Of a DNA stretch of 32,000 bases, positions 1,291 through 27,100 are shown one piece after another. Origin of the DNA: an uncultured bacterium (GTDB taxonomy: Bacteria > Auribacterota > JACPWU01). Under the pieces are notes generated by a model. That model was given only the letters and a program-made list of their open reading frames with translations, did not search any database and had not been told where the DNA came from. Each line of letters starts with the position of its first letter. Within the stretch, counting starts at the first letter, position 1. Location: assembly GCA_964640155.1 (NCBI GenBank), contig CAZXEQ010000007.1:90001-122000 (forward strand), given 5' to 3'. Position numbers and translations under genes: made by a program.

Positions 1291-2223
1291 ATGCGGGTCG
1301 TTAAAAATATTAAAGAACTTAAAAATTTTTCTTCTCGCCCTTTTGTGACATTAGGAAATTTTGATGGAGTGCATCTTGGGCATCGAAAAATTTTTGATGA
1401 ATTAAAAAAACGTTCAACTCAAGCGAATGCACAGTCTGTTGTTGTTACCTTTAATCCTCATCCGCGACATGTTTTAAATCCATCTTTACCTCTACATTTA
1501 ATTAGCTCTTTAGAACATCGATTGAAGTTATTTGAAGAAGTGGGCATTGATGTTGTTTGCATGATTCATTTTGATATTGAATTTTCTAAATTAAGTGCAG
1601 ATTTTTTTATTCGTGAATTGCTTTTTAAACATTTGAATTTTGCTGAACTGATTGTAGGTCACCCTTATGCCTTTGGAAATCAAAGAAAGGGAAATGTGGA
1701 AATGCTTCGTTCTTTGGGAAATGAGCTTGGATTTAGAGTGGACACAATTTCACCTTTTAATATCAATGGAGAGATTGTTTCAAGTAGTTTGATTCGTCAG
1801 TCTATTCAAGAGGGGAAATTAAATAAGGTCTCTCAACTCTTAGGAAGAACTTATTCGATAGGAAGTCATGTGATAAGGGGGCAGGGTTTAGGAGCTAAAC
1901 TCGGTTTTGCAACAGCCAACTTAGATATTCATTCCTTGGTGCTTCCTCCACGAGGTGTTTATGCCGTAGAAGTTAAGTTGAATGGAGAAAAGCGATTGGG
2001 TCTTGCAAATTTGGGTGTTCGCCCTACTTTTGAAGATCAAAATCCTCAAATGAATATGGAAGTCCATATTTTAAATTTTCAGGGTGATTTATACGGACAA
2101 TGGCTAGAAGTATTTTTTCTTGATAAAATACGTGATGAAATACGTTTTAAAAGTCCTCAGGAGTTGTCCGGACAGATCAAAAGAGATATTTCTAATGTAA
2201 AAGAAAAGTATCTTAGTATATAG
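1291..2223 (+). CDS. ribF: bifunctional riboflavin kinase / FMN adenylyltransferase
   Basis: N-terminal nucleotidyltransferase motif GNFDGVHLGHRKIF and a C-terminal riboflavin-kinase segment (GQGLGAKLGFATANL ... VEVHILNFQGDLYG). The track ORF starts at TTG 1273, overlapping the truB stop. ATG 1291 has GAGAGG 10 nt upstream and is preferred, but 1273 remains possible. Confidence 0.9.
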   Translation: MRVVKNIKELKNFSSRPFVTLGNFDGVHLGHRKIFDELKKRSTQANAQSVVVTFNPHPRHVLNPSLPLHLISSLEHRLKLFEEVGIDVVCMIHFDIEFSKLSADFFIRELLFKHLNFAELIVGHPYAFGNQRKGNVEMLRSLGNELGFRVDTISPFNINGEIVSSSLIRQSIQEGKLNKVSQLLGRTYSIGSHVIRGQGLGAKLGFATANLDIHSLVLPPRGVYAVEVKLNGEKRLGLANLGVRPTFEDQNPQMNMEVHILNFQGDLYGQWLEVFFLDKIRDEIRFKSPQELSGQIKRDISNVKEKYLSI

Positions 2224-2309
2224 TAATTAGTAGATGGAACATCTTCTTAGGCACAAAAATAGGTAGATTTTAGGAGGATGAAACCCAGAAAATTATTTCA
2301 TTTACGGCC

Positions 2310-2339
2310 TTGCAATTGATAAGGAACATATGATATCAT
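2310..2339 (+). promoter_or_regulatory. candidate sigma70-type promoter for rpsO-pnp
   Basis: TTGCAA (2310-2315), an 18-nt spacer, then TATCAT (2334-2339) preceded by TG at 2331-2332 (extended -10, TGnTATCAT). It lies about 40 nt upstream of the rpsO ATG. This is a pattern match only. Confidence 0.4.
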
Positions 2340-2378
2340 CTTTACCTTATTAAGAATTTAGATTAAGGAGATAAGCAA

Positions 2379-2648
2379 ATGGCGCTGACAAAAGAGAAAA
2401 AAGAAAGCATTAAAACGAATTATAAAGTTCATGAAAAAGATACAGGGTCTACAGAAGTACAAGTGGCCCTTTTGACCGAGCAAATCAATGAGTTGACCAA
2501 GCATCTTCAGGCTCATGTGAAAGATCAGGGTTCCAGACGTGGATTGTTAAAAATGGTAGGTGATCGCAGGCGTCTCTTGGACTACTTAAATGGCGTCAGT
2601 GCCCAGAGATATCAAAAGTTGGTTGAACGATTAAAATTAAGAAAGTGA
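2379..2648 (+). CDS. rpsO: 30S ribosomal protein S15
   Basis: 89-aa ORF with a typical S15 sequence ([22 protein letters not shown]...[19 protein letters not shown]). Strong AAGGAG SD at 2365-2370, 8 nt before the ATG. Confidence 0.96.
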
Positions 2649-2652
2649 TCCT

Positions 2653-4761
2653 ATGATTCATAGAGTTGAAGCGCAAATTGGTTCTAAACAGATTATCATT
2701 GAAACAGGACGTATGGCTCGTCAAGCTCATGGAGCCGTTACGGTTCAAATGGGTGGAACGATTGTTTTTGTTGCAGCTTGTGTTAGTTCTGAAGTAAAAG
2801 AAGGAACAGACTTTTTCCCTTTGACCGTTGATTATCGGGAAAGAATGGCAGCTGCAGGAAGATTTCCTGGTGGCTATATTAAAAGAGAAGGTCGTCCTAC
2901 CGAAAAAGAAATTTTGACTTCCAGACTTACAGATCGTCCTATTAGACCTTTATTTCCTGAAGGTTTCTTCAATGAAGTTCAGATCATGGCGCAAGTCATC
3001 TCTGCGGATGAAGATAATGATCCAGATGTTTTGTCTATTATTGCTGCTTCAGCAGCCCTTCATATTTCGAATATTCCTTTCTTAGGTCCTGTTGGAGGAG
3101 TGCGCATGGGCTTGAAGGAAGGTCGTTGGGTTGTTAATCCTACCTATGCTGAGCTTCCTGAAAGTGATCTTGATTTAGTGATTGCTGGAACTGAAAAAGC
3201 TATTTTGATGGTTGAAGGTTCAGCTCGTGAACTCTCAGAAGCACAGATGTTAGAAGCCTTACGTTTAGGGCATGATGAGATTAAAAAAATTGTTAAAGCT
3301 CAAAATACATTGCGTGAGAAATGTGGCAAACCAAAGCAGACTTTTGATTTGTTTAAAATTGATGAGAAGTTTTCTGCTGCCATGAATACATTTTTAAGTG
3401 GGAAGATGGATAAGGCTTTGGTCATTTCTGGAAAAGCTGCCCGTGAAGAAGGATTGGGCAAGCTTTATGACGAAATGAAAGAAACTTTAAGCACTCAATT
3501 TCCAGAAATTCCAGAAATGATGTACAAAGAAGGTTTTGCTCAGATTGAACGTCACAAACTTCGTCGTATGATTGTCGATAAAGGAATTCGTAATGACGGA
3601 AGAGGAGTTAAAGATATTCGTCCGATCAGTTCCGAAGTAGGTATTTTACCTCGTACCCATGGATCCGCATTGTTTACACGTGGTGAAACACAATGTCTGG
3701 CGACAGCAACTTTAGGTACAGTAGATGATGCTCAAAAATACGAAGGTTTCGAGGGCGAAACTTCAAAATCTTTTATGTTGCATTATAATTTTCCTGCTTA
3801 TAGCGTAGGAGAAGTGAAGCCTTCACGTGGTCCAGGACGTAGAGAAATTGGACATGGTGCTTTGGCAGAACGTTCACTTCTGGCAGTTCTTCCAAAACAA
3901 GAAGATTTTCCTTATACGATTCGTATTATTTCTGACATCATGGAATCTAATGGTTCCAGTTCTATGGCTTCTGTTTGTGGCGGTGCATTATCCATGATGG
4001 ATGCGGGTGTTCCTATTAAAGCGCCTGTTGCAGGTATTGCTATGGGATTGATTAAAGAAGAAGATAAGACGGTTGTTTTAACAGATATTCTGGGCTCTGA
4101 AGATCATTTAGGCGATATGGATTTTAAAGTAGCCGGAACAAAAAATGGAATCACTGGTTTTCAGATGGACTTGAAAATTGAGGGGATTGATCAAAGTTTA
4201 TTTAAGACAGCCCTTGAAGATGCTCGAGTAGCTCGTTTGCATGTGCTGAGTGTCATGCAACAGGCTCTTGGAACCCATCGCAGTGATCTTTCTGAATTTG
4301 CTCCACGTATTGTCACGATTCATATCAATCCTGAAAAAATTGGTTTGGTGATAGGCCCTGGTGGCAAGACCATCAAGAAGATTATTGAGGAAACTCAAAC
4401 TGAAATTAATATTCAGGATGACGGCTCTGTTGCAATTGCTTCTAGCAGACAAGATCGTGTGAAGGCAGCAATTGAAAAAATTCAAGAGCTTACGGCTGAA
4501 GTTGAAGTGGGCAAAATTTACAAAGGGACCGTAAAAAACATTGTAGAATTCGGTGCTTTTGTTGAAGTGATGCCTGGTAAAGAAGGGCTTGTTCATATTT
4601 CTCAATTGGCTGATTATCGCGTCAAAAAGGTGGATGAGATCTTGAAGCTTGGAGACGAGGTCATGGTGAAGGTGACTGAGATTGATGATCGTGGCCGAGT
4701 TAACTTAAGTCGAAAAGCAGCTCTTGCGGAATTAGGTACAGAATCTCCAGCAGGAAAATAA
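2653..4761 (+). CDS. pnp: polyribonucleotide nucleotidyltransferase (PNPase)
   Basis: 702-aa ORF starting 4 nt after the rpsO stop. It has two RNase PH-like halves (FFPLTVDYRE; SRGPGRREIGHGALAERS), a KH region (IGLVIGPGGKTIKKI) and an S1 domain (GAFVEVMPGKEGLVHISQLA). Confidence 0.97.
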   Translation: MIHRVEAQIGSKQIIIETGRMARQAHGAVTVQMGGTIVFVAACVSSEVKEGTDFFPLTVDYRERMAAAGRFPGGYIKREGRPTEKEILTSRLTDRPIRPLFPEGFFNEVQIMAQVISADEDNDPDVLSIIAASAALHISNIPFLGPVGGVRMGLKEGRWVVNPTYAELPESDLDLVIAGTEKAILMVEGSARELSEAQMLEALRLGHDEIKKIVKAQNTLREKCGKPKQTFDLFKIDEKFSAAMNTFLSGKMDKALVISGKAAREEGLGKLYDEMKETLSTQFPEIPEMMYKEGFAQIERHKLRRMIVDKGIRNDGRGVKDIRPISSEVGILPRTHGSALFTRGETQCLATATLGTVDDAQKYEGFEGETSKSFMLHYNFPAYSVGEVKPSRGPGRREIGHGALAERSLLAVLPKQEDFPYTIRIISDIMESNGSSSMASVCGGALSMMDAGVPIKAPVAGIAMGLIKEEDKTVVLTDILGSEDHLGDMDFKVAGTKNGITGFQMDLKIEGIDQSLFKTALEDARVARLHVLSVMQQALGTHRSDLSEFAPRIVTIHINPEKIGLVIGPGGKTIKKIIEETQTEINIQDDGSVAIASSRQDRVKAAIEKIQELTAEVEVGKIYKGTVKNIVEFGAFVEVMPGKEGLVHISQLADYRVKKVDEILKLGDEVMVKVTEIDDRGRVNLSRKAALAELGTESPAGK

Positions 4762-4773
4762 AAAAATCGTTAT

Positions 4774-4790
4774 GCGTTTTGCGTAAACGC
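4774..4790 (+). terminator. short hairpin after the pnp stop, doubtful as an intrinsic terminator
   Basis: GCGTTT (4774-4779) pairs with AAACGC (4785-4790) around a 5-nt loop, 13 nt after the TAA. No U-tract follows. Confidence 0.25.
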
Positions 4791-4808
4791 TAAACCGTGT
4801 CAGAAGTT

Positions 4809-4892
4809 TGTCATCCCCGATAGAAACTACTCGGGGATCCATGTAAATAGTTTTAATAAATGGATTCCCAATTAATACTTTTGGGAATGACA
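4809..4892. repeat. head-to-head pair of related ~34-bp palindromic units (REP/BIME-like)
   Basis: Unit B is TGTCATCCCCGA-10 nt-TCGGGGATCCAT, with an 8-bp stem 4813-4820/4831-4838. Unit C is ATGGATTCCCAA-9 nt-TTGGGAATGACA, with an 8-bp stem 4864-4871/4881-4888. The reverse complement of C aligns with B at both arms (TGTCAT.CCC.A ... T.GGG.ATCCAT). Confidence 0.6.
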
Positions 4893-4915
4893 TAAGTTAT
4901 AGAATATTCGGACTA

Positions 4916-4936
4916 GACGCACGACGCATGACGCAC
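4916..4936 (+). repeat. three tandem heptamers GACGCAC GACGCAT GACGCAC, ending 11 nt before the ftsK ATG
   Basis: Read directly from the sequence. It shares the 10-mer ACGCATGACG (4924-4933) with the heptamer array at 9791-9825. Confidence 0.65.
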
Positions 4937-4947
4937 AACGGCTTTCA

Positions 4948-7284
4948 ATGCGAAAAAAAACTTCCAAACAACGTCCTTCAGTTCCTACCAATAAATGGGG
5001 GGAAGTTAGAGGCGTTCTCCTCATCGGAATCAGTATTTTTTTGTTTTTAGGCCTTATCTCTTATAGTCCTTCAGATATTTCTTTTTTAACTCCTCATCCT
5101 GAAGACCCTCCACATAATTATGTTGGGTTGGTAGGGGCATGGCTTTCCTTTTTAATGCTCATTCTTTTTGGTTTGGCTTCATTTCTTGTTCCTACCATTC
5201 TTTTTATTTTTGGAGTACGCGCATTTTGGAAACAAGAAGTACATCATTTCTGGCCTAAGGTGGGACTTGTACTGGCTTTGTTAACAAGCTCAGCATGTCT
5301 TTTTGAATTGCATAGAGGTGTGATGCTTTTACAAGGAGCACAACATTTTGGACTTGCTGAAATTGGTCCTGGAGGAATGTTAGGAAAATGGATTTTAAGA
5401 CAGGCCTTGGCCAGGTGGATGGGAGTTGAAGGTTCTTACATTTTGCTTTATTCTGGCTTTTTAGCAAGTTTACTTTATTTGTTAGAAGTTCGTTTGGTTA
5501 AGTTAGGTCAGTTTTTTGCCTATTATGGGACACATATTTTTAATACGGTTTTAAATTCGATTAGAGATTCCTTGAGTTTTATAAAAACAAGATTGATACG
5601 TGCAGGAGAGCAGGCAATTGAGGAAAGACAAAAATCTGGTTCATCTGCAAAAGTAAAACCCGCTTTATGGAGAGAGAAACCTGAAGAAGATGATGATGAA
5701 ATAGATGAGGATGAAGAAACAGAACCCACACGAAAATCTTCTGGCAAACCTATCCCGGTGACAGAAGTAAAACGTCCATTACCTACTGATAAAAAGCCAA
5801 AGGAAACACAAGTTCAACTAGAACTCATTACATCGGGTAATTATCAACTTCCGTCTTTGAAACTTCTGGATGATGCGGTAGGCCCAAAAATAGTTGCAAA
5901 TGAAGATTTGCAAAGAAATGCAGAAATTTTAAAAACGACTTTGGCTGAATTCGGAGTAGAAGTGGAAGTAGTGAATATCACCAAGGGGCCTGTGATTACG
6001 CGATACGAACTTCAACCGGCGCCGGGTCTCAAAGTTCAGAAAATTGTAGGGCTTTCTAATGATATTGCCTTAGCGATGAAAGCAGCCAGTGTGCGTATTG
6101 TAGCCCCTATTCCAGGTAAGGCAGCTGTGGGGGTAGAAATTCCCAACAACACAGGTGTGGTGGTTTATTTAAAAGAACTGCTTTCTTCCGATGAATTCAA
6201 AAGTTCTCGTCATAAAATACCTTTAGCTTTAGGTAAGGATGTCACAGGCGTTCCTATTGTGGCGGATTTGACAGAAATGCCACATCTTTTAATTGCAGGG
6301 GCCACAGGCTCAGGTAAAAGTATTTGCATGAGCTCTATCATTTTAAATATTCTTTTTTATGCAAGTCCAGATTATATTCGTTTTCTTTTGATCGATCCAA
6401 AAATGGTTGAACTTTCTCTTTTTAATAATCTTCCTCATTTAGCTTTTCCTGTGATTACAGACTCTAAAAAGGCAGCGGCAGGTTTGGCTTGGCTTGTGAC
6501 AGAAATGGAACGAAGATATAAAGTTTTGGCAGAGGTGGGTGTTCGCAATATTGAAAATTTTAATGAGAGAGTTGTTAAAGAAAAAGTGACCATTCATACA
6601 AGTGAAGAGCCTTTGAAACCTCTTCCTTATATTGTGGTTGTGATTGATGAATTGGCAGATTTAATGATGGTTGCAGCCTATGAAGTAGAAAACAGCATTG
6701 CCCGCCTTGCTCAATTGGCTAGAGCTATTGGGATTCATTTGATTTTAGCAACACAGCGTCCTTCGGTAGATGTAATTACGGGTGTGATTAAAGCCAATTT
6801 TCCTGCTAGAATTTCATTTCAGGTTTCTTCAAAAGTTGATTCAAGAACTGTTTTAGATGCGATTGGTGCAGAAAAACTTGTAGGCAAAGGGGATTTGCTT
6901 TTTATGCCTCCGGGTTCTTCTAAATTAGTTCGAGCACAAGGGGCTTATATCAAGGATACAGAAATTAAACGCGTCTTAGATTTTATTAAAGGACAAAATA
7001 TTGAATCTAATTTTAATATCAATGCCAAGGAAGTTTTAGAAAAGGCACAAAGTTTTAATGGGGATATCAGTGACGCAGATGATGAGACAGTGGTTGAGCA
7101 AGCCATACAAGTTATTAAAAATACAAATCAAGCCTCCGTTTCTGTGCTACAGAGAAAACTCAAAATCGGATACAGTCGTGCTGCACGGATTATGGATCTT
7201 CTAGAGGAGCGAGGAGTGGTCGGGCCTTATAAAGGAAGTAAAGCCAGAGATATTCTCATTGATATAGGAGCTCAAGAGGTCTAA
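4948..7284 (+). CDS. ftsK: DNA translocase FtsK
   Basis: 778-aa ORF. It has an N-terminal polytopic membrane domain, an acidic linker (EEDDDEIDEDEETE), Walker A GATGSGKS, Walker B VVVIDELADLM and a C-terminal gamma winged helix (SVSVLQRKLKIGYSRAARIMDLLEERGVVGP). Confidence 0.95.
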   Translation: MRKKTSKQRPSVPTNKWGEVRGVLLIGISIFLFLGLISYSPSDISFLTPHPEDPPHNYVGLVGAWLSFLMLILFGLASFLVPTILFIFGVRAFWKQEVHHFWPKVGLVLALLTSSACLFELHRGVMLLQGAQHFGLAEIGPGGMLGKWILRQALARWMGVEGSYILLYSGFLASLLYLLEVRLVKLGQFFAYYGTHIFNTVLNSIRDSLSFIKTRLIRAGEQAIEERQKSGSSAKVKPALWREKPEEDDDEIDEDEETEPTRKSSGKPIPVTEVKRPLPTDKKPKETQVQLELITSGNYQLPSLKLLDDAVGPKIVANEDLQRNAEILKTTLAEFGVEVEVVNITKGPVITRYELQPAPGLKVQKIVGLSNDIALAMKAASVRIVAPIPGKAAVGVEIPNNTGVVVYLKELLSSDEFKSSRHKIPLALGKDVTGVPIVADLTEMPHLLIAGATGSGKSICMSSIILNILFYASPDYIRFLLIDPKMVELSLFNNLPHLAFPVITDSKKAAAGLAWLVTEMERRYKVLAEVGVRNIENFNERVVKEKVTIHTSEEPLKPLPYIVVVIDELADLMMVAAYEVENSIARLAQLARAIGIHLILATQRPSVDVITGVIKANFPARISFQVSSKVDSRTVLDAIGAEKLVGKGDLLFMPPGSSKLVRAQGAYIKDTEIKRVLDFIKGQNIESNFNINAKEVLEKAQSFNGDISDADDETVVEQAIQVIKNTNQASVSVLQRKLKIGYSRAARIMDLLEERGVVGPYKGSKARDILIDIGAQEV

Positions 7285-11963: not shown

Positions 11964-12003
11964 GTTACAAGTCTCCAGTTGTAGGAATAAATTTATTTAT
12001 GAA

Positions 12004-12087
12004 CTGGTGACCTGTGACTGGTGACCTGTGACTGGTGACCTGTGACTGGTGACCTGTGACTGGTGACCTGTGACTGGTGACCGGAGA
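12004..12087 (+). repeat. 14-bp tandem array CTGGTGACCTGTGA: five perfect units plus one degenerate unit (CTGGTGACCGGAGA)
   Basis: Units start at 12004, 12018, 12032, 12046, 12060 and 12074. Each unit is two related heptamers (CTGGTGA / CCTGTGA), so TGAC recurs every 7 nt. The array ends 5 nt before the mnmA ATG. Confidence 0.95.
12083..12087 (+). promoter_or_regulatory. mnmA Shine-Dalgarno (GGAGA) created by the two substitutions in the last repeat unit
   Basis: GGAGA is followed by a 5-nt spacer (CTATA) and ATG 12093. The five upstream units read CTGTGA at the same position and contain no SD. Confidence 0.5.
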
Positions 12088-14887: not shown

Positions 14888-15055
14888 GAATAAGTCTTAA
14901 AACGGTATTTTTCGATTGAAATAGCGATATTTTATACAAATTTGTACAATAAGGTATAACAAGCTCCTAATAAATAAGTTCTGGAAATTTGCATATTAGC
15001 AAAAGATATGCTATATTTAGGCAACAAGGGGAGCTTCCCAAAACATTCTCTAAAT

Positions 15056-15184
15056 ATGCAGACAGTCAGTCCATTTAACATATTGAATTGGAAGTGGTTA
15101 CGATCAGTCATTGTTTCGAGCATTTCTTTCTCGTTAATTGTCGATGCACCTGGTTTATCTTGGGAAAGAAGGGTGGAAGCTCAA
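15056..15184 (+). other. N-terminal signal peptide or signal-anchor of the giant protein
   Basis: MQTVSPFNILNWKWLRSVIVSSISFSLIVDAPGLSWERRVEAQ has basic residues (K, R) followed by a ~13-residue hydrophobic stretch and then a polar region. No lipobox is present. Confidence 0.5.
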
Positions 15185-18100
15185 ACCGTGTCAGCGTTTC
15201 CGCGCGTCGATATTACCTCTGTTTCTATTCAAGATTTAATCCTCAAAGAAATGAGAAAAGATAAGACCTTTAAGTCCTCATCCGGTCTTGAAGTTGTCCT
15301 CATTAGAGATTTACATGCGCAAGAAGAAGCCCAACTTAAAATTGCTCATTCTCTCCAACAAATCTATGAACAGTCTAAAGTTTCCAAGGTTTTCATAGAA
15401 GGAGCTGAAGGTCCTATTCGAACACTTCTTTATCAAGCTTTTCCCAATGAAGATGTCAGACGTAAAGTAGGCAGAGAGTTTGTGAAAGAGGGTTATTTAA
15501 CGGGAGCAGAACTTGCGGCAATTGAATTAGGTTTGGGCGGAAACATTGAGCTTTATGGAGCAGAAGACGCTAAACTTTATGTAGAAAATCTCAAAGCCTT
15601 TCGCCAAACACGTCTAAAGTATCAGACTCTCGAATCAGAAATCCAATCTCTCACAAATAAAATCAATTCTTTAAAAAAGACTCACTTCTCCCAAGAGCTT
15701 CAAAGTTTAGATGATTTAAAACAGGACTGGGAAAAAGAAAATGCAGATTTAGAAAAAATTGTAACTCAGATTCACGGTCTTCTTAAAGTAAATGGAAGAA
15801 CACTTGCCAAATGGAAAAATATTGAGGAATTATCATATATCATTGATTCCAATAAACAAGTAGATCAGGCTAGCGTTCAAAAGGAATTGACAGATTTAAT
15901 TACATTCTTACAAAAAGTTCTTTCTGGTGAACAAGTCAAAGAATTGATTAAGCAAACATTGGAGTATCGGCTTGGGAAAATTTCTAGTGCGCATTACTTG
16001 ACAAATTTAAAAGTAATATATCAAAAGAAAAATTCGGATAAGAACTTTGAAAAAGATTTTCCCTCCCTGCAGAGTTGGTTGTTTGTATCCCAAAGACAAG
16101 AAAAATTAAATTTAAATGAAGTGTGGAAAGAAGTTCAAGATCTTTTCGATACTTTGATTAATGAATATGCAATTCGAGAGAAAACAACCGAACTGGTCAA
16201 TTTAGATAAAAAATGGACTTTATTTCACAAGTTTTTTCAACTAGAACTTTCTCGAGCAGACTTACAACAGATTCAATCTTTAAAACTAGAACAGGAACTC
16301 GCTTCTATACATGAACGCGTACAAGCTTTAGCAGTCCCCGACATGGGGCAAGCCTCTCAGAAAAAGGGGTCTAACCCTCCAAAGATTCCTGAGAAACTTT
16401 TTGATTTGGTAAAAACAGCTCAAAATTTTTATACATTGGCTAAGAAGAGAGATGAAGTTTTAATTCATAAAACACTTGAAAAATTATCTGGACCTCAAGA
16501 TGCGGCTGTTTTGATCACGGGAGGTTTTCATACGGAAGGAATTCAGAAAATTTTGGAAAAGAAAAATATTTCTTATGTAACTTGGACTCCTCAGATTAAA
16601 GATCTTTCAAAAGAAAGCCCTTATGAAAAAATCATGATGGATGAAAGTTTTAATTTGGGTGAAAGTGAATTTTCTGAAAAGCGTTTGGTTTTGCGTGATG
16701 GATCTGATGAGATTCGAAAAATGTTGGGGATTCCTGTTCTTGCAGGAAAAATTTTGGAAGCTCTAAGTAAAGAACGGTATACAGAAGCGGTTGAGCATCT
16801 TTTAAGTATGATGGTTACGGAGGGGAGGGAAACGGAGTTTAGAACTGTAAATGAAATGTTAAATCAATGGTTTCGACCTAGGATGAACGAGGATGAAGCT
16901 TCTCGCATAGCACGAGCCGCGGCTCGTGGATTTCCTCAGGAAGTTTTTTTGGATATGGATCGACTTGTTGATCCTGCCAATCGAGCACAACGAGATCTGG
17001 CTTTGAGGGTGGTTAAAACTGCTTTTGGCGATACTTATCCAGGTCTTGTTGCTTTAACACAAACTATTTTAAGAAGAGCAGAAGGAAAGGATGAAGGTAA
17101 TAAAGAAATTAGAGCGTTGGAAATTTTCTCAAAAGTTAAGGAGCATTTGTCTGCTCCCAAGGTTGAGGAGAGAAAAGTCTTTGACTTGTTGAAAGGTGTG
17201 GAGAGTGAGCTAAAGGAAACAGCAGGTGTAAAAAGAGCAAATGCTCTTTTTTTTGATTTTCTTTCTCATAAGGCTACAAAATTCTTGGATGAAGCAGCCG
17301 GTTTATCTTTAATGGAAACAGTCGATAAAGATTTTAAAAAAAGAAAAGCAGACGTTTCGGCGAAATTAAAATTAGCCGAACTAGCCATAGCTGATTTTAA
17401 AAAGTTTGAAAGAATAGGAATATCTTTAAATAGGCCTCAGGAAGAAATCTTACGTGGTCTTAAGGCACGTGTAGAAAATTTAAATAAAGCATTGGAAGAT
17501 TATGAACTTGCCCTTGTTCAGGTAAATAAAGGATCTCAAGCAAATTTCTCATTTGTGGAGGGCGAAGCTGCTCTTATTCAACCCCATTCCCCAACATGGG
17601 CTGGGAATTTAATCTCAAAAATTGTTGATGCAAAATATCGCTTAGTTTCTGATACGGTTTCTCAAGAATCTTCTTTGCGTGAGCGAGTTGACCGAGTAAC
17701 GAATTTTTATGAATCTGCTGTAGAGAGAAGTAATGATACAGCTGCAACTTCTGTGGGGAGAGAAGTTTCTAAGCGGCTTGCACATGCCTATTTGAAGCTT
17801 TTAGTAAAAGCATTGCTTGAGTTGGCAAACGCTCCAAAAGGAGATGAAGAGGCGGAAGTTTTAAAAGAGCTTCGTACGGGAATTCGCCTTTTAAAGGGAC
17901 CTATTGGCCTTTTGCATGCTGAATCAAATGAAGGGGAAACGGTTCAATCTTTCTTAGAAGTTTGTATGCTCACGTTTGGTAGAGTGCTGGATGATATTGA
18001 GGCGAGATTAGGGGATGCAACCGCTAAGGATGATACCATTGTAGGAAATATTCTACTTGATCTCGCTAATTATATCGAAGAAGTGAAGGTGTTAGATGTT

Positions 18101-21100
18101 TATAAAACAGGAAGTAATGGTGTTGCATCTTTTCTGGAAGGTTCTACTAGAACTTTTGGAACTTTGAGGGGTGCCGCTCAAGAGAAAGCCGGGAGTTCTT
18201 CTCCTAACAATAGATTGGCTGGGACAGCGCATTTTGCAGCTCTTGTTGGATTCTCTCCTGTGGCTGGTAGGTCGTCTACATCTGATAGAGATTTAGGTAT
18301 TGTTATTGAAGATGATTTAAGTGGTGCTGATGTTTCTGGTGCGCCACGGGTTGTTGCGATGGCAACAGGATTTGATGATGAAGATGCTGAAGGAAAAGTC
18401 ACTGTACCTGCCTCTGCTCCTGTTTTTGAGAGTTTATTGCCTGATGAGTATGTGAGGTCGTTACCGCCGGATGCGCCAATGGGTTCTTCACGTGTGGCAG
18501 TAGGGCCTCCCGCTTTACCAGCTGCGTCGGCACCGGTAGCAGATGCTTCGTCAGATGGAGAAGAATTTGTCATTGATGACCTTGATGCATACATGGCGGA
18601 AACTTCTGATGCTGCTGCGGCTAAACGTCCGGCCATTCCTCCACCTGCGCTGCTTGTTCGCGGTTCAAGCGTGAGGCCTCCGGCTTTGCCACCTGGAGAA
18701 GCTAGAGCTACGACTCGTTCTGATAGACCTGCTATGCCTCCTCCTGTTCCGAGTGGAACAGTTCGTGCTCCCTCTCCGGCATCTGGGGCAAAAGCGCCTG
18801 TAGCAATAGCTGATGCATCTGCGGCTGACGATGAGGTGGAGTTTGAAGAAGCGGAGGGAGAAGGTATAGTTGTTGAAGATGATGTTTTAGAAGCAGAGGT
18901 ACTACAGAGTCTTGTGCCACCTGAACCTGATAAACGAGAAGTTGCAGGGCGGTCATCTGCAGCTTCTATTCCTTTAGATTTGAGAAGGATGAAAGAAGCT
19001 CCTACCATATCTCCAAAGGATGTTAAACCTCTGACAGGAGGTGATGGAGGAGAAGTAGAAATTGTAGCGGTCGGTAAAGATGGTGAGACAGTTCTTTCAT
19101 TAGGCGAGCCTAAAGTTAACCGTGTTCCTTCGCGACCAGCTCCACCTCTTCCTTCTGCCCAATCTGCTTCTGACCGTCCAGCACCTTTTCCGGAAGCTTC
19201 TCAGAGAGAAGGTGCTCTGCCTCGTGCTGCAGATGCTCCTACGGCTGTAGCAGTTCCTGCACCAGTTGGTGTACCTGCTCAAGAAGTAACTTTAACAGGG
19301 AAGGCTTTGCTGGATTCTCTTGCTGCTAAAATTCCCGTGAATGTTCCTAATGAGACAGAACTTTTAAGAAGTGATGATGACAGTCCGATGCGAGCTATAG
19401 CTAAGTTTTGTGGTGCGTTTACTCGAGATGCTTTGTTAGGAGATAGAGAAGAAATTTATCGCGAAGACGGCATTTGGGATCATTGTTGGCAAATAATGAT
19501 GGCTCGCGCACAGCTTCATGTAGCAAGGCGTGAATGGGATAGTGCAGTTAGGATTTATTCTGGTTCTATTACAGTGCTTGATAGCATGGAAAAAGCTCAT
19601 TCAACACTTATCGGTAAAGAAGGTGTGGTGGTTAGTAGAGAGGAGATTGGAAGAGTTGAAAAGACTTTTACAGACAAACAAGGAAATATAGAAAACGGGC
19701 GCAGAATTTTGGCTATTACCAAAACATTTTCTGCTGAACCTTCGGCAGAAGGAGTTTCTTTAGAAACAGTAACTCTTGCAAGTTTGGAAGCTTTGTATAC
19801 AGGAGATGAGGCTCCCTTAACAACTGTGACAATGGATGCTAGTCAATTTGAAAATTTGAAAACTCAGCTGATTGAATTTGTAGATCGATATTTAGTTCGA
19901 GAATTGGCTTATGCCTACATTAGATATTCTTTTGAAGATGCACAGACCTTGCTTTTAGCAGGTTTTCGTTTAATAGAAAATTTTGTAGTAATGGGGAATA
20001 GATTGGGAATAGAGAGTTCATCTTTAGAAGGTTTAGCACAAGTAGCAGATAAGCTTTGTGAAGGGTCTCCGTCAGATCAACTCAGAGTGGAATGGTTGGA
20101 TCAATTAGAAGAGCTTTCATTGCCTGATAATAAGAAAAGAGCGCTTTACGATGAGCAAATTGGTTTTTATAAAGCAGCTGAAAGAGTGGTTTCTTTTTCT
20201 AAACGTTCAGAGTTAGCACTAAAAATAAGAGATTTGGAGGCTACAAAAGAGGGAGTAGGGATAAGATTATCAGAAATGCCACCTCTTGTGCCAGCAAGCC
20301 CTTCTGCACTAAGGGGTCCAACTCCTACACACGGTTCAATACCTCCAGGAATATTTGTAGCTAAGGCTCCAGAAGCGGCTCCGGCATCTGGCGATGCTAA
20401 TCCTTCAGTATTTTTCCCAGGAGGACCTGCTGCAGGTAGTGCAGCAGAAGGAAGTGGAACTATAGAGCTTTCTGTGCCAGATTTTCCTCTTGAGTCATTA
20501 TCAGTTCCAGGAGTAGCAATGCCTGCTGTGCCAGCACCGGTAGCAACAAAAGTAGAAGGCGCTCAAAAACCTCCAGCAGTTCCAACTAAAGGTCCTAAAG
20601 GCGTTGTTCCAAGAGCAAGGCCATCTAAACCACCGGCTGCCAGGTCTACAAAATTATCTACAGGTGCTGTTGCTGCACCTCCACCTATTCCTATTGATGC
20701 TGTCCTAGAAGTTTCAGGAGCAGTACCGTTTCCTCAACCACCTCCTTTGCCTGCTGCACCGGCAGTTGCATCTGCGTCAGCTGTTCCCCCTGAAGCAGCT
20801 ACAGCAGTAGCAGCAGCTAAACCGGCAGAAGATGCACCTGAAGAACTTTCAAGCTCAGCTTTTGTGGTTGATCAACTCCCTGGAGCACCTGCAGAAATGT
20901 CTACACCATCAGATTCCTTAGAAGCTCTTGCTGCTCGAATTCCCAAAAGTCTTCCAAATGAAGCTGAGCTTTTGAGAGATGATAAAGATGGACCATTAGT
21001 AGCTGTGAGAGCTTTTTATGCGGAGTTTAATAGGGTGCCTCTTAAAGTAAAGAGTCGAGAGAGTATTTATGAGAGAGGACGTATTTTTGATCAAATGTGG

Positions 21101-24100
21101 AATATTTTGATGGCTCGTGCAGAACTTCACGTTGCAAGAGGTGAAAGATCTAGGGCTTTAGAAATTTATGATGAATCTGAAAAAATTTGTCGTGGTATGG
21201 AAGGAGCACACGGACTACTTGTGGTAAGGGCAGAAGGTCTAGCACTTGCAATATCAATGGGGGAAATTAATCCGGGTGATCTTGGTATTGGTAAAGATGA
21301 AAAATCGTTTTCTGCCAAACTTACAGATCTAGAAAATAGGCGACGTGCTTTAGCTGCTGTTCCTGTAGTAGATGAACCTACAGAGCTTTCTGCAGAACTT
21401 GTTATTTCTCGACCTTCAGCTGTACCGTCAGGTCTACCAGCAGCACCAGGTTCTGCTAGAGCGAAACCTAGTGGTAGGACAGCATCGGAACGTGCATCTC
21501 TTCGTCCACCTGCTCCGCCTGCTGCAATAGCTCCGGCATCCGTGGCAACACAAGCAGCTGTACCTCCACCTGTGCCAACATCTGCACCGCGTGCTGTTCC
21601 TCCAGCAAAAGGACCTCCTGCTGTTCCTGCAGAAATATTGGCGGCTGGTATGGGAATTACTCTGGCAGATGTTTCGAAAATGGGTTCGTCCGATGAAGCA
21701 GTCTTGGATGCATCCGATGTAGAATCTCAAAGTTGGCTTGAGGAAAAGCTTCCTTCTGTTGCAGGAGCTTTGGATTGGGTTGAAGAAAGACGAATACAAA
21801 ATTTGGTTGATACGATGGATGCAGAAAAGTTTGTACAAGCTTTACAGGGTTCCCAGAGCGATCAAAAAAGAGCTTTTAGTGCGATGCGACGAATAAAATT
21901 AGAGACAGAAAGAGGACAAGCCATTTTAGATGGGGCTTTTGCTCTTATCAAAAATATTGCAGAGGATACACAGCGTAATCGGCTTTATCTCATTTGTTAT
22001 AATTTTATTTTTGAATATGCAAACGCAAACAAATTATGGGAGCTTGCAGCCAAATACGCTGCAAGCTCTTTAAATACTCTTTATTATCCTCCCAAAAGCA
22101 TTATGGAGTTTTCTTTGTTGCTTGTTCAGATTTTGGGCCAGGCGGGGGCCAGAAAAGCAGGTTTGACACTGGCTTTTTATAGCGCGCTTCAAAGACAAAA
22201 ACCATCGAGAGAGAAAAAAATAGCTTTAAGAAATTTTTATGCTCTTCTTGTCATTCTGGCTTGGAAAGAAAGCGATTGGACTGCAATTTCAAGTTTTGTT
22301 GAGCGGGCTATCGCAGATGATTTAGAAATAGCCTTTTTTCTTATTCAAAATATTTCAAAATATAAACATAAAGATATCAATGTAAAGGCTTTATGGTGGA
22401 GTTTTGCGCAGGCTGTCACAAAGACTCTAGACTCGAATCAGGATGTTTCAGAAGAAATTATTTTTAAAACAATAGAAGCTTTGGGCGTGCAAGAAGAACT
22501 AAGTAATCTTCTGATGAGCGCTTATTATAAAAGACTTAAAAGACGGATTAAATCTGAACCTGACTCTCAAGGAACGAAAGATGCGTTAGGACGATATTTT
22601 ATTGTTTTTACAAGAATGGCGTTAAAAGCAAATGACATTGAACTAGCAATTCATTTGGCGAATCGAGCTATTGAAGATGGACTGATCGAATATGCACACG
22701 AGCCTGTGGAGCTTCTGGGAAGAAGCAAGTTCTTTAAATCTAAAAAAGTTCAGGATTTGATTGCGCGTTTTCATGGCGAGATTGTAAAAATTGCTGATGA
22801 AAAAGAAAGGGTAAAGCAGTTACGTCTTTTTTATACCGCTATAATTAGGCATGCAATTGATCATAAGGCTTGGGATATTGAAGTGGCATACTGGGATAAA
22901 TTGAAGGGAGAACATTTAATATCGGCCCTTGTTTGTTCTGTGTATTTCTTAGGATCTTCTAAAAATGCTCGAGATCTTTTCTTTAGCATTTATTATAGAC
23001 TTGATGAGAAAAAAAAGCTTGATGTGGAGCTGTCGGTCGGGAATATTTTTAAGACAATAGATACATATCTTCAAGTGAATAAGCGAATAGAGGATGATCA
23101 AATAAGGAAAGTGGTTGTTTTAAGAATGGCTGTTACGCTGCTGTGTTCTCCTGAACTGGATAAGGAAAGTCGTTTAACAGTTCAGTTGCTGTTAGAACTA
23201 ATAAAAACATTTGATAAATATACATGCAATTTTACTCCTAAAGATGCTAAGGAGTTAGGCCCTATAGAAAAAGCAGTGGGGGCTGTGATGGCTTTAAATT
23301 TTAAGTTGAAGAAAGTTTCAGGAGAAAGAGATGAGATTAAACGTTTAAAAGAAATACAAGAATTTACCAATATTGCTTTTGCGTATTTGAAAATTGCAAA
23401 AGAACTTCCTGGTACTGTTCCTGGTGAAGTTCAGAATATTTTAGTCGGGGAAATTGAAGGTCATCTTGAAAATGCTTTAGTAAGTTATAGAAAAGCTCTG
23501 GCTGCTACATATGAGAATGTTTTTTCTTATTCGGAATCTGTCTTAACTTCTGCAAAAACTCTTTTGGATGAAGGAGATGAACTTTTCAAAAATCTTCTAA
23601 GATATCAATGGAAAGGGATATCTTTTGACGAAGCCAAATCGCATGCGCTCTATAAATTGGCTGTTTCTTTGAATGAGGAACGAGAGGAGCTCAAAAAGCG
23701 TCTTAACACAAGAATATTGGAACTCCAGGTAAGTGAAATTAGAAGGGGCTTTTCGAGGGCTAATTCAGAATCTTTTGATGGAAATTGGAGTCGCTACGAT
23801 AGAGACTTGAAAGTTTTAAGAGATATTGTTTTGCACAGCACAAGTAGTGATCCGGATGTTGCCAAAGAAGCTTTGGATGTTTGTATGGATCAAATGGAGT
23901 TTCTATTATCGCTAAGTTCGACTTTGACTGGTGAGCACCGCACAGAAGGTATTCGCTGGATAGGACAACAGATTAAGGAGTTATATACTCTTGAAGGATA
24001 TGTAGGTAGGGATGCTTCTATAAAGAAACTGTTTGGTTTTAGACTTTTAGCTATGAGTTTAGATTTTTCTACACAGGCAGATCTTGCAGCAGCGGAAGTT

Positions 24101-27100
24101 ACTCAAACTCAGATGAATGGTCTTTTAGAAAGAGCAGACTGTGACATAAACGAATTAGAAAATGTTTTAGCTGGATTAGAACTTTTTGCTGCTGGCCTAG
24201 CAAGTGTTCAAGATAACAGTCGTTTTGAAAATGCCAGAACTCTTACATTGGGTTTGGCTAAAGCTGTTTTAGAAAAGGTGAAGGCATTAGATTCTTCTTC
24301 TGCATTAGTGGGAAGAACAACAAGCTTGATTGCACGATTCTCCGATAATCTTCTTGAAGCATTGCAAAATGCTTTATCTCTTGAGGCTCTTCAAGCCATG
24401 CCTCAGGAGAGTGCATTGGAAATAATAAAATCCATTTATGAAGGAGATCATGCACTTTTAAGAAAAGAGGGTTCTGCTGACGAGGCTTCATATCTTGCTT
24501 TACTTGCAAACGTTGCAATTGTTGTTAAAAGCTTTATTATTCCTCAGTTGCAAGAGGCTTGTAACCAAAGGGATTGGACGAGGGCAGGGTCTTTGCTATC
24601 TATCACGTTTGGTTTGATTTCTGGTTTTAGAAAATTTCATGCAGATCGAGGTTTCTTAGATGGAAAATTTTCTGTATTAAATGATTTGAGAGGTCTATTT
24701 ACAAAAGAAAGTAAACCGTATAGCGAATATCTTGAAGCTTCTCTTTTGGGGGCAGAAAACTTTTTATCCTTAGAACGATATTTAAATCTGTTTTTAGACT
24801 TTTATCAAAAGGCTGCTGCGGCTTTCCCCTCAAAAGATATGGAGAAAATACGAGGCAAATTTTCATTTTTCTCAGATGTCTTGAGAGATTGTAAGGGGGA
24901 TTTTAGTGGAGTGAATGTGAAGATTATTGCCGAAAAGATCTTTCAACGCCTTTCGAGTCTTAAAGATCAGGATATCGATGTATGGGAAATAGCGATTGTT
25001 TTTACAATGGCTCGACTATGTGATGGAGCAACAAAGGGGCTTAAAGACGTTTCGTTAATGGAACAGATTCAGGGTTTGATTCATCAAACTGCTAAGCTTT
25101 TAGATGAAAAACTTGGCTCTGCAGGAATAACCGATCGGGAGAAAGGATTGGGGAAGGGAGTTACCTATTTTGCTCAGATTGAGGAATCTCAAGGTAATAT
25201 TCGGCTGTTTGATAGTACGGGAAAAGTTGTTTATTTGGATAGAGCTCTTCGTGGTTTAGAGGTGGCAGCTAAAAGGACTCAAGCTAGGGGCCAAGTGTTA
25301 GAGATTTCGAATGTCTTAGTCAGTCGTGTCGGGGACTGTTTTTTTCAAAGAGAGGGGTTGGAGACTTATAGACGTGCGGAAGCTTTGTTAGGAAGTATTT
25401 TGGATGAGTTGCCTGAAGGCGATGCAAATAAGGGAGCATATCAAAATTTAAAAGATAGAATACATCGTATTGTAATTTCAAGTGAGATTGCGGATTTTGT
25501 GGGTATAGGTCAATTACTTTATGCATGTGATTTTTCGGATCTTTCTGGATGGAGAAATCTTTATGAGAGGAGAAATCGTCTTGCTGGAGTAGACATTCCT
25601 GATGATGAAGATAGAACTTTGCATCTTCATATTTTATCTGGACAGTTGGATCGTGTTTATACAGAACTTTCCAAAAAAATTGCTCAAGTTGCTGTTCCTG
25701 TTGAGGGTGTTTATCCTCAACGAGTTGATATTTTAGTTGAAATGGGATTGGGCTTAGCGAAAGCCTTTAAATCTAAATACGAAGCATACGATCTTCATGA
25801 AGGTGAGATAGCAGGAAATATTTCTATTTTTGTCGACCAATTTTTTAATGAGAAAGTCAAAGTGATTTTGTCCGCGATGGAAACTCAAGCACAGGCGTTG
25901 CTTGAAACAGACTTGTTAAGAGCTCAAGCAATTTATGCAAGAATGCTTCGCATGTGCAATCAGGCTTTGACAGCAAGTCCTTCTCTGTTTGAGTCTAGTT
26001 CAGAAAATTTTAAATTAATGAACCGCATTCGAGCGCTTTCGGTCAGACCACAGGCTGAAAATGAATATGGAAAGGCCATTGCTTTACTCAAAGAAATAGA
26101 AGCTTTGGATATGAGAATAGAAGAGGATAGAGTTGTTGCTAATAAAAAACTTGTTGAGGCCGAAAAATTGTATGAAGCGATAAAGGCTCCTTGTTCATTT
26201 CCGGGAACTCTTGATCTTTTGGCTGAATTGAAACATGCACGTGTTCTTGTAGCTATTGGGAATTCTCTTAAGGCTTTACAGGAGGAAAATGAAGAAGAAG
26301 CTCAAAATCAATGGATAATTGTTAATAGAAATTTGTTTGCAGAAAGTTCGGGCTATGGCTTAAAAGTTGTTTTGAAAGATTTTGTTTTAGCTCAGTGTCA
26401 GTTAGCTCGTTTGGACGACAATGTTTCATCCTTAATTCAAGTGGGAAAATTCGCTAGCTTGGGCTTTGAGTTGATTTCAGTTTTTCGAAAATTTTGCCTG
26501 ACTCCCGGACTTGTTGGGGGACCTTCTCCCGAGCATCAGGCAGAAGTTTTTGCTCAAGGGGATGTATTTTACGATTTAGCACGTGTTTATGAAGCGAGAC
26601 TTCTTGAAAAAATTCAAAATGAAGGAGATCCTGTTTCAGCTTTAAAAATGTATGAAGAATTGGAAAGATTTTCTCGAAGTGGGGCAGAGTCCGTTTCGGC
26701 ACCATCTTTAGTTGCTCGCTTAGATGCACAGGCTAAACGAGCAGATCTCATGAGAGCACTTCTTGCTTCTCCTATAGATTCGACTGTTGCAGAGCGTTTT
26801 CAAGATTGGATAAGAAGCGATGATTTTACACTGGACGATGAACCTTTTACAGCAGCTTTCTTAGCTCAATGGGCGAATGCTGTGAGCGCCGAACAAGATG
26901 TTGCAGCTTATGAAGCAGGTCAGACACATATCATTGAGACAATAGATATTTTACAAGAACGGTTATGCGCTTTGATTCCAGGATCAACACCGAGTCTTAT
27001 ACTCACTTCTTTTAGGGTAGTTCTTCAAATTGACAAAGCTTTAAGAGCTTACGAGAGATCTAAAAACGGCGGTAGTCAAGCAGGAGATGTCGAAAAATTA

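Follow-up and report, generated by a model that had tools for sequence, protein, structure and literature searches.

The window analysed here, a stretch of 32,000 nucleotides from an uncultured bacterium of the phylum Auribacterota (GenBank assembly GCA_964640155.1, contig CAZXEQ010000007.1, positions 90,001 to 122,000 of the forward strand), holds the first part of a giant open reading frame (ORF) encoding a protein of 9,702 residues. Within this protein a segment of 370 residues, termed tract T1, is the longest among seven proline-rich tracts and represents an ordinary type of feature within an unusual protein. On balance, we consider it probable that T1 is a disordered tether equipped with lineage-specific short motifs, whose partner is more likely to be bacterial. 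The initial annotation had raised the possibility that these motifs mimic eukaryotic signalling or cytoskeletal adaptors and act on a host or prey, a proposal that fares poorly, since the SH3-type match on which it centred occurs at chance level and its arginine is absent from the paralogous tract T2.

Composition and predicted structure of tract T1

Proline (13.5%) and alanine (17%) together account for 30% of the residues of T1, and the tract carries a net charge of -26. Its G+C content of 0.46-0.52 stands out against about 0.38 in the surrounding sequence, an enrichment that had previously been put down to a bias towards GCN and CCN codons. The bias is indeed present: G+C in T1 amounts to 0.71, 0.57 and 0.24 at the first, second and third codon positions (GC1, GC2 and GC3), with GC3 at 0.265-0.277 elsewhere in the gene, and the content expected from the amino-acid composition and the gene's own codon usage is 0.511, compared to an observed value of 0.507. 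Since composition predicts the value and GC3 is not raised, the rise in G+C is purely compositional, and, with GC3 unraised, a foreign origin of the GC-rich stretch was rejected. The same bias had been held responsible for a minus-strand frame of 276 codons rich in serine, alanine and glycine. This frame exists, has no Pfam match and was rejected as a gene, being a mere shadow of the GCN/CCN-rich sense frame. No tandem repeat was found in the DNA of T1.

The structure of residues 1057-1640 was predicted with AlphaFold2, using a paralogue alignment of four rows. Across T1 the block means of the predicted local distance difference test (pLDDT) range from 29 to 45, and nearly all 370 residues fall below 50, while the adjoining helical module reaches 74-89; because the alignment had only four rows, the low values are weaker evidence of disorder than usual. 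At low confidence, the model contains a strand pair formed by LGIVIE (in the motif GIVIEDDLSG) and RVVAMA, as well as a helix over DDLDAYMAETSDAAA within the motif EEFVIDDLDAYM. The biased composition, the lack of a predicted stable structure and the folded flank support the assignment of T1 as a predicted intrinsically disordered inter-domain linker. The more conservative proposal of the initial annotation, a long flexible spacer, thus gains backing from the composition, from the predicted disorder and from the six further proline-rich tracts of the protein.

Proline- and alanine-rich disordered linkers between domains are familiar from large bacterial proteins, including the linkers of FtsK, ZipA and RodZ and the spacer of TonB. 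T1 resembles these segments in its biased composition, its predicted lack of structure, its location between folded modules and its very fast divergence. It differs from them in its unusual length of 370 residues, in recurring cores of six to seven residues and in the separation of charge into acidic blocks and basic proline blocks. The earlier comparison with TonB holds as an analogy only, as T1 contains no runs of EP or KP dipeptides (by direct reading) and no TonB domain.

Short motifs, charge blocks and duplicated modules

All nine motifs listed by the initial annotation, five basic proline motifs and four acidic-hydrophobic ones, are present once each at the positions stated (Table 1). 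Read from the N-terminal side, they run A A A P P P A P P (A, acidic; P, proline) and thus do not strictly alternate; what does hold is a segregation at the level of blocks. Compared to composition-preserving shuffles of the 370 residues, from which all chance expectations given here derive, T1 shows an elevated charge-block variance (z = 3.8, P = 0.0006) as well as a correlation of local proline density with net positive charge (r = 0.59; shuffles 0.06 +/- 0.14; P < 1/3000). The proline core of the initial annotation, RP[AP]x[ILMPF]P, occurs four times in T1 (0.03 expected) and its acidic core, [IF]V[IV][ED]D, three times (0.003 expected), both patterns having been drawn up post hoc from the sequence itself. 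Of the 14 matches to the proline core found among all ORFs of at least 150 residues in the genome, 6 lie within the giant protein.

The best repeat in the DNA of T1 is a 22-mer with 20 of 22 positions identical between the copy encoding GIVIEDD (18295-18316) and that encoding GIVVEDD, in the motif GIVVEDDVLEAEVL; by our own rough estimate, this degree of identity is compatible with the same residues being encoded under biased codon usage. A recent duplication of the motifs at the DNA level was rejected, given the absence of a tandem repeat and the fact that this 22-mer is the sole notable DNA identity. T1 can be divided into three sub-units which have the motifs in common, but whose flanks are unalignable beyond composition (no pair at z > 2.5), a combination that favours motif retention or convergence over recent duplication. 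A separate proline-rich repeat protein with an N-terminal hydrophobic segment is encoded elsewhere in the genome by a frame of 686 codons (G000:C1:417797, plus strand); it comprises at least four near-identical tandem units of about 30 residues, TTRPPRPPLGG[FL]RPDDHI[DN]PDVIRTAVPI.

T1 is directly followed by the first of four helical modules of about 100-150 residues, which self-comparison places at residues 1435-1569, 1971-2116, 4964-5059 and 5096-5265. Modelled alone, the first module (M1) reaches a pLDDT of 85 and a predicted template modelling (TM) score of 0.81. No sequence relative of the modules was detected. The top-ranked structures in a fold search with M1 were TPR domains that recognize acidic-hydrophobic peptides (Sec72, Sgt2, Hop and FKBP38), but an assignment as a TPR-type peptide binder was discarded, since E values of 0.047 or above and TM scores of 0.2-0.4 do not amount to evidence. 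The seven proline-rich tracts are interspersed with modules, kinase-like domains, PP2C domains and hydrophobic segments: T1 precedes M1, T2 precedes M2, T3 comes after M2, T5 after the second kinase-like repeat, and T7 lies ahead of the hydrophobic segments.

T1 is weakly collinear beyond composition with both T2 (z = 2.6, P = 0.012) and T3 (z = 3.6, P = 0.004), and the cores lined up in these alignments are PPPVP, RPPAxPP and PPLP. In particular, AMPPPVPSG and VRPPALPP of T1 align with AVPPPVPTS and LRPPAPP of T3, PPLP aligns with PPLP of T2, and the counterparts in T2 of the acidic-hydrophobic motifs are segments of hydrophobic and weakly acidic character, IELSVPDF and IDAVLEVS being examples.

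These findings are consistent with the following arrangement. T1 would tether the N-terminal head and helical region of the protein to the first of the four helical modules of about 150 residues. Its basic, proline-dense segments (core RP[AP]xxP[P]) would likely adopt an extended polyproline-II structure; between them lie acidic and hydrophobic micro-segments free of proline (core [IF]V[IV][ED]D), which may have a weak propensity for strands or amphipathic helices. With acidic and basic proline segments alternating, T1 would therefore be a blocky polyampholyte of net charge -26. The unit of tract plus module was presumably duplicated long ago, and the short motifs appear to have been retained while the flanks diverged. 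Through the motifs, T1 could engage a partner multivalently and with low affinity; this partner is likelier to be bacterial than a eukaryotic SH3 domain, and conceivable partners are domains of the same giant protein or of another one.

Homologues that might inform on the conservation of T1 were sought widely. A HMMER search with residues 760-1700 against 1.84 billion representative proteins yielded no true homologue, the sole match, a THAP-like repeat protein (P0001), being a repeat-inflated artefact. Word-index searches (with the whole protein and the region, or with the piece alone) and scans of genome contigs and metagenome contigs likewise returned no homologue, either for T1 or for the sequence on either side of it. 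The giant protein itself is absent from the protein-search matches, and proteins of such length may be missing from the index, which limits these negative results. The tract and its flanks also found no match among 40 related genomes, and four of the related genomes (G001-G004) contained no match to residues 1427-1757, 2215-3214 and 4400-5300. The four modules have diverged too far for their alignment to serve as the starting point of a scan. In the same-genus genome G001, the syntenic locus lies on a contig of 8,303 bp (C208) with an mnmA gene at least 90% identical (same 90% cluster); this contig ends at about residue 531 of the orthologue, whose head is 83-85% identical, and the orthologue's tail is found at another contig end (51% identity).

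The absence of homologues from the databases searched is expected of fast-evolving linkers and fits another explanation, namely that T1 is a purely passive entropic spacer, in which only length and flexibility matter and the motifs, relics of ancient internal duplications or products of compositional bias, have no part in binding. The presence of seven such tracts in one protein, the weak similarity between tracts and the lack of confident docking by AlphaFold2 point in the same direction. Moreover, outside the genus the nearest relative with the same head, a protein of 4,559 residues in genome G004, is essentially devoid of a proline-rich tract, and the tracts are therefore dispensable for the family. 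A passive spacer does not readily account for the persistence, amid unalignable flanks, of the seven-residue GIVIEDD and GIVVEDD and of four copies of RP[AP]x[ILMPF]P, nor for a segregation of charge and proline well beyond that of shuffled sequences. We consider this explanation rather unlikely.

Several observations weigh against the interpretation of T1 as a motif-bearing tether. Constraint on the motifs is deduced from paralogues and shuffles only, and the core patterns and the pLDDT values are subject to the limits given above. In T2 alone, the segregation of charge and proline is not significant. AlphaFold2 produced no confident docking of any T1 motif onto M1, and no structure retrieved in the fold search with M1 reached significance (best E = 0.047, TM score at most 0.42). 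Finally, the signal-like N-terminus of the giant protein and the charge pattern at its C-terminal hydrophobic segments predict opposite topologies for the kinase-like/PP2C bulk of 8,400 residues. By our own reading of the topology, the positive-inside pattern of the C-terminal segments would fit a cytoplasmic bulk at least as well as export.

The SH3-type match and the question of eukaryotic mimicry

The initial annotation had singled out RPAPPLP (19133-19153; residues 1376-1382) as a class I SH3 ligand. Both its coordinates and its fit to the consensus are correct, and it is the only match to [RK]xxPxxP in T1; the remaining four proline motifs miss this pattern, as they have I, A, M or P at the fourth position and lack a proline at position 7. 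A motif scan, as the initial annotation had envisaged, reveals that such matches are no commoner in T1 than chance: the class I pattern [RK]xxPxxP is observed once with 0.57 expected (P = 0.44), the strict form +xΦPxΦP once with 0.13 expected (P = 0.13) and the SNX9 form RxAPxxP once with 0.065 expected (P = 0.06). The latter occurs once in the entire protein. PPLP is likewise found once in T1 (0.05 expected, P = 0.05). The patterns PxxP, PPP, EVH1 and WW(PPxY) are at chance level, and T1 contains no EVH1 or WW(PPxY) ligand motif. At the site of T2 aligned to SRPAPPLP the sequence reads FPQPPPLP, without the class I arginine, a comparison that involves a paralogue only. Judged from these sequence comparisons, the SH3-type match is probably a chance by-product of an arginine- and proline-rich composition.

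The genome, which is 97% complete, provides little to suggest a eukaryotic partner. No SH3_1 or SH3_2 domain was found in it, and bacterial SH3_3 domains are restricted to two proteins. The FHIPEP export gate (PF00771) had no match, while the controls matched; since this gate was not found, no type III system or flagellum is detected. A search of the genome for an ATP/ADP translocase carries no weight, since its controls gave no match either. Candidatus Auribacterota are described as anaerobic fermenters of lakes and the subsurface (PMC9324843).

Proline motifs in a disordered bacterial segment also have a precedent. The C-terminal region of Escherichia coli SSB consists of a disordered linker with PxxP motifs and an acidic-hydrophobic tip; the tip is the established partner contact, and binding through the PxxP motifs of the linker is a proposal under examination (PMC7145534, PMC10164576). 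T1 is similar in combining PxxP with a short acidic-hydrophobic motif, which in SSB docks partners, and differs in that its acidic motifs are internal and repeated, whereas SSB has a single C-terminal tip. Since the contact established for SSB is the acidic tip, its example counsels caution in reading a bacterial PxxP as an SH3 ligand.

A comparable system on the eukaryote-directed side is EspF, a type III effector of enteropathogenic Escherichia coli, which comprises three to five proline-rich repeat domains, each with one RxAPxxP site common to all orthologues (Alto et al. 2007, PMC2064658). T1 resembles EspF in its predicted disorder and its multivalency, and in placing a basic proline motif of the RxAPxxP type, which RPAPPLP fits, beside a second site. 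Unlike EspF, which is delivered by a type III system, T1 has one fitting motif and degenerate repeats, and the export gate was not found.

A broader precedent is offered by the giant proteins of Omnitrophota and neighbouring lineages of the Planctomycetota-Verrucomicrobiota-Chlamydiota (PVC) group, which have ORFs of several thousand residues, a signal-like N-terminus, transmembrane segments and many enzyme modules, and for which an action on other cells, picoalgae among them, has been suggested (bioRxiv 10.1101/2023.11.21.568195; PMC12057145). The protein studied here shares the very long ORF, the signal-like N-terminus, the transmembrane segments and the enzyme modules, and by analogy the giant protein as a whole may be directed at another cell. 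Proline-rich motif arrays are not described in these papers: the words 'proline', 'disorder' and 'linker' appear nowhere in the text of West-Roberts et al. 2023 (bioRxiv 10.1101/2023.11.21.568195), and the second paper (PMC12057145) speaks of disordered regions in an Auribacterota-related giant protein.

Taken together, these comparisons bear on the proposal that T1, within an exported or delivered protein, is an array of short linear motifs aimed at a host or prey, whose SH3/SNX9-type RxAPxxP and acidic amphipathic motifs would recruit adaptors of a target cell in the manner of EspF. Such an array could draw on the fit of RPAPPLP to both [RK]xxPxxP and the SNX9 consensus, on an N-terminus resembling a Sec signal peptide (WKWLR followed by a hydrophobic core of 13 residues), on the action on other cells proposed for related giants and on the pairing of a proline motif with a second binding site in the EspF repeats. 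However, the match is single and was picked post hoc, with P values of 0.44 for the loose and 0.06-0.13 for the stricter forms; the arginine is not kept in T2, no conserved tandem repeats, EVH1 or WW(PPxY) ligand motifs or FHIPEP gate were found, the prey suggested for related lineages consist mainly of prokaryotes, in which SH3 signalling adaptors are lacking, and published work infers a fermentative, heterotrophic way of life for the phylum. We therefore regard a host- or prey-directed array as very unlikely. Its fullest version, an EspF/TarP-like strategy evolved independently in a bacterium of the PVC group, in which T1 of an exported or delivered giant would recruit adaptor or cytoskeletal proteins of the target cell, is likewise very unlikely. 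More generally, chance alone is expected to produce a near-perfect SH3 ligand in an arginine- and proline-rich disordered tract, and such a match is therefore no ground for inferring host mimicry.

The tether bearing lineage-specific motifs, which we prefer, adds to the anatomy of Auribacterota/Omnitrophota-like giants, whose variable middles would contain duplicated units of a disordered tract plus a helical module. These units carry lineage-specific short motifs and a block-wise charge pattern, and if the motifs are docking sites, they would offer a handle for finding what giant proteins bind.

The giant ORF and its surroundings

The giant ORF extends well beyond the window (Table 1), and the portion past its end encodes a second kinase-like domain, two PP2C domains, five hydrophobic segments (residues 8496-8699) and a conserved tail. 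The Logan assembly of SRR8893623 contains an identical contig of 37 kb with the same gene call of 9,702 residues. Pfam finds no match in the tract or in the first 5,664 residues of the protein, the head included. In each of four related genomes the head matches 19-34 separate large ORFs; by these sequence matches, the head defines a paralogous family of very large size. Matches to the tail occur in ORFs of four other genomes of the phylum (G001, G004, G011 and G026) and in paralogues within its own genome. As both head and tail are matched elsewhere, the protein belongs to a 'head-and-tail' family of giants.

Table 1. Positions of T1, its motifs and neighbouring features of the giant ORF (window coordinates unless a contig is named)
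Feature	Position	Strand	Residues	Remarks
Giant ORF	G000:C7:105008-134116	+		9,702 residues, one unbroken 29-kb frame; starts at window position 15008
Window part of giant ORF	15008..32000	+		First 5,664 of 9,702 codons; then runs beyond the window
Head domain	15086..17107	+	about 27-700	After signal-peptide-like N-terminus
Tract T1	18176..19285	+	1057-1426	370 residues; in frame with the ORF from 15008
Shadow ORF	18178..19008	-		276 residues, Ser/Ala/Gly-rich, antisense to giant ORF; not a gene
Acidic-hydrophobic motif GIVIEDDLSG	18296..18325	+
Acidic motif GFDDEDAEG	18368..18394	+
Acidic-hydrophobic motif EEFVIDDLDAYM	18560..18595	+
Basic proline block KRPAIPPPA, VRPPALPPGE, DRPAMPPPVPSG	18623..18757	+		0 of 3 fit [RK]xxPxxP
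Acidic-hydrophobic motif GIVVEDDVLEAEVL	18863..18904	+
Second basic proline block SRPAPPLPSA, DRPAPFPEA	19130..19198	+
Module M1	19286..19735	+	1427-1576	All-helical, directly after T1, first of four copies
Tract T2	20168..20893	+	1721-1962	Pro/Ala-rich, weakly collinear with T1
Module M2	20894..21328	+	1963-2107	44% identical to M1
Tract T3	21329..21757	+	2108-2250	LRPPAPP and AVPPPVPT in common with T1
Third and fourth helical modules	29870-30277; 30260-30700			Paralogous copies of M1

Self-comparison reveals two kinase-like repeats (residues 4526-4817 and 6195-6498), and the two PP2C domains are recognized by both Pfam and NCBIfam. The co-occurrence of these domains in one polypeptide suggests yet another role for T1, that of a phospho-regulated substrate or docking region, in which the protein's own kinase-like and PP2C domains would modify serine and threonine residues of the tract in cis and thereby switch the conformation of the tether. 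T1 is indeed serine-rich (serine and threonine account for 48 of the 370 residues) and predicted to be accessible. Yet, no kinase consensus is linked to these residues, and neither an FHA nor another phospho-reader domain was detected in segments that appeared FHA-like by eye; these segments lacked a Pfam match even at E <= 10, and the idea of an FHA domain was dropped. Phospho-regulation of T1 is accordingly improbable.

Just upstream of the second kinase-like domain, residues 5878-6124 form a tandem pair of 123-residue units with 51% identity (L002, G000:C7:121999-134116). The giant ORF is one of several long frames in its genome: G000 harbours eleven ORFs of 4,839 to 17,802 residues, e.g., at C7:15772, C2:236785 (minus) and C1:578095 (minus), which by our own arithmetic make up about 12% of the 2.44-Mb genome. 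Upstream of the giant ORF, the spacer between a cysteine desulfurase gene and mnmA (window positions 12003-12082) contains a perfect tandem array of the 14-bp unit ACTGGTGACCTGTG, repeated 5.7 times.

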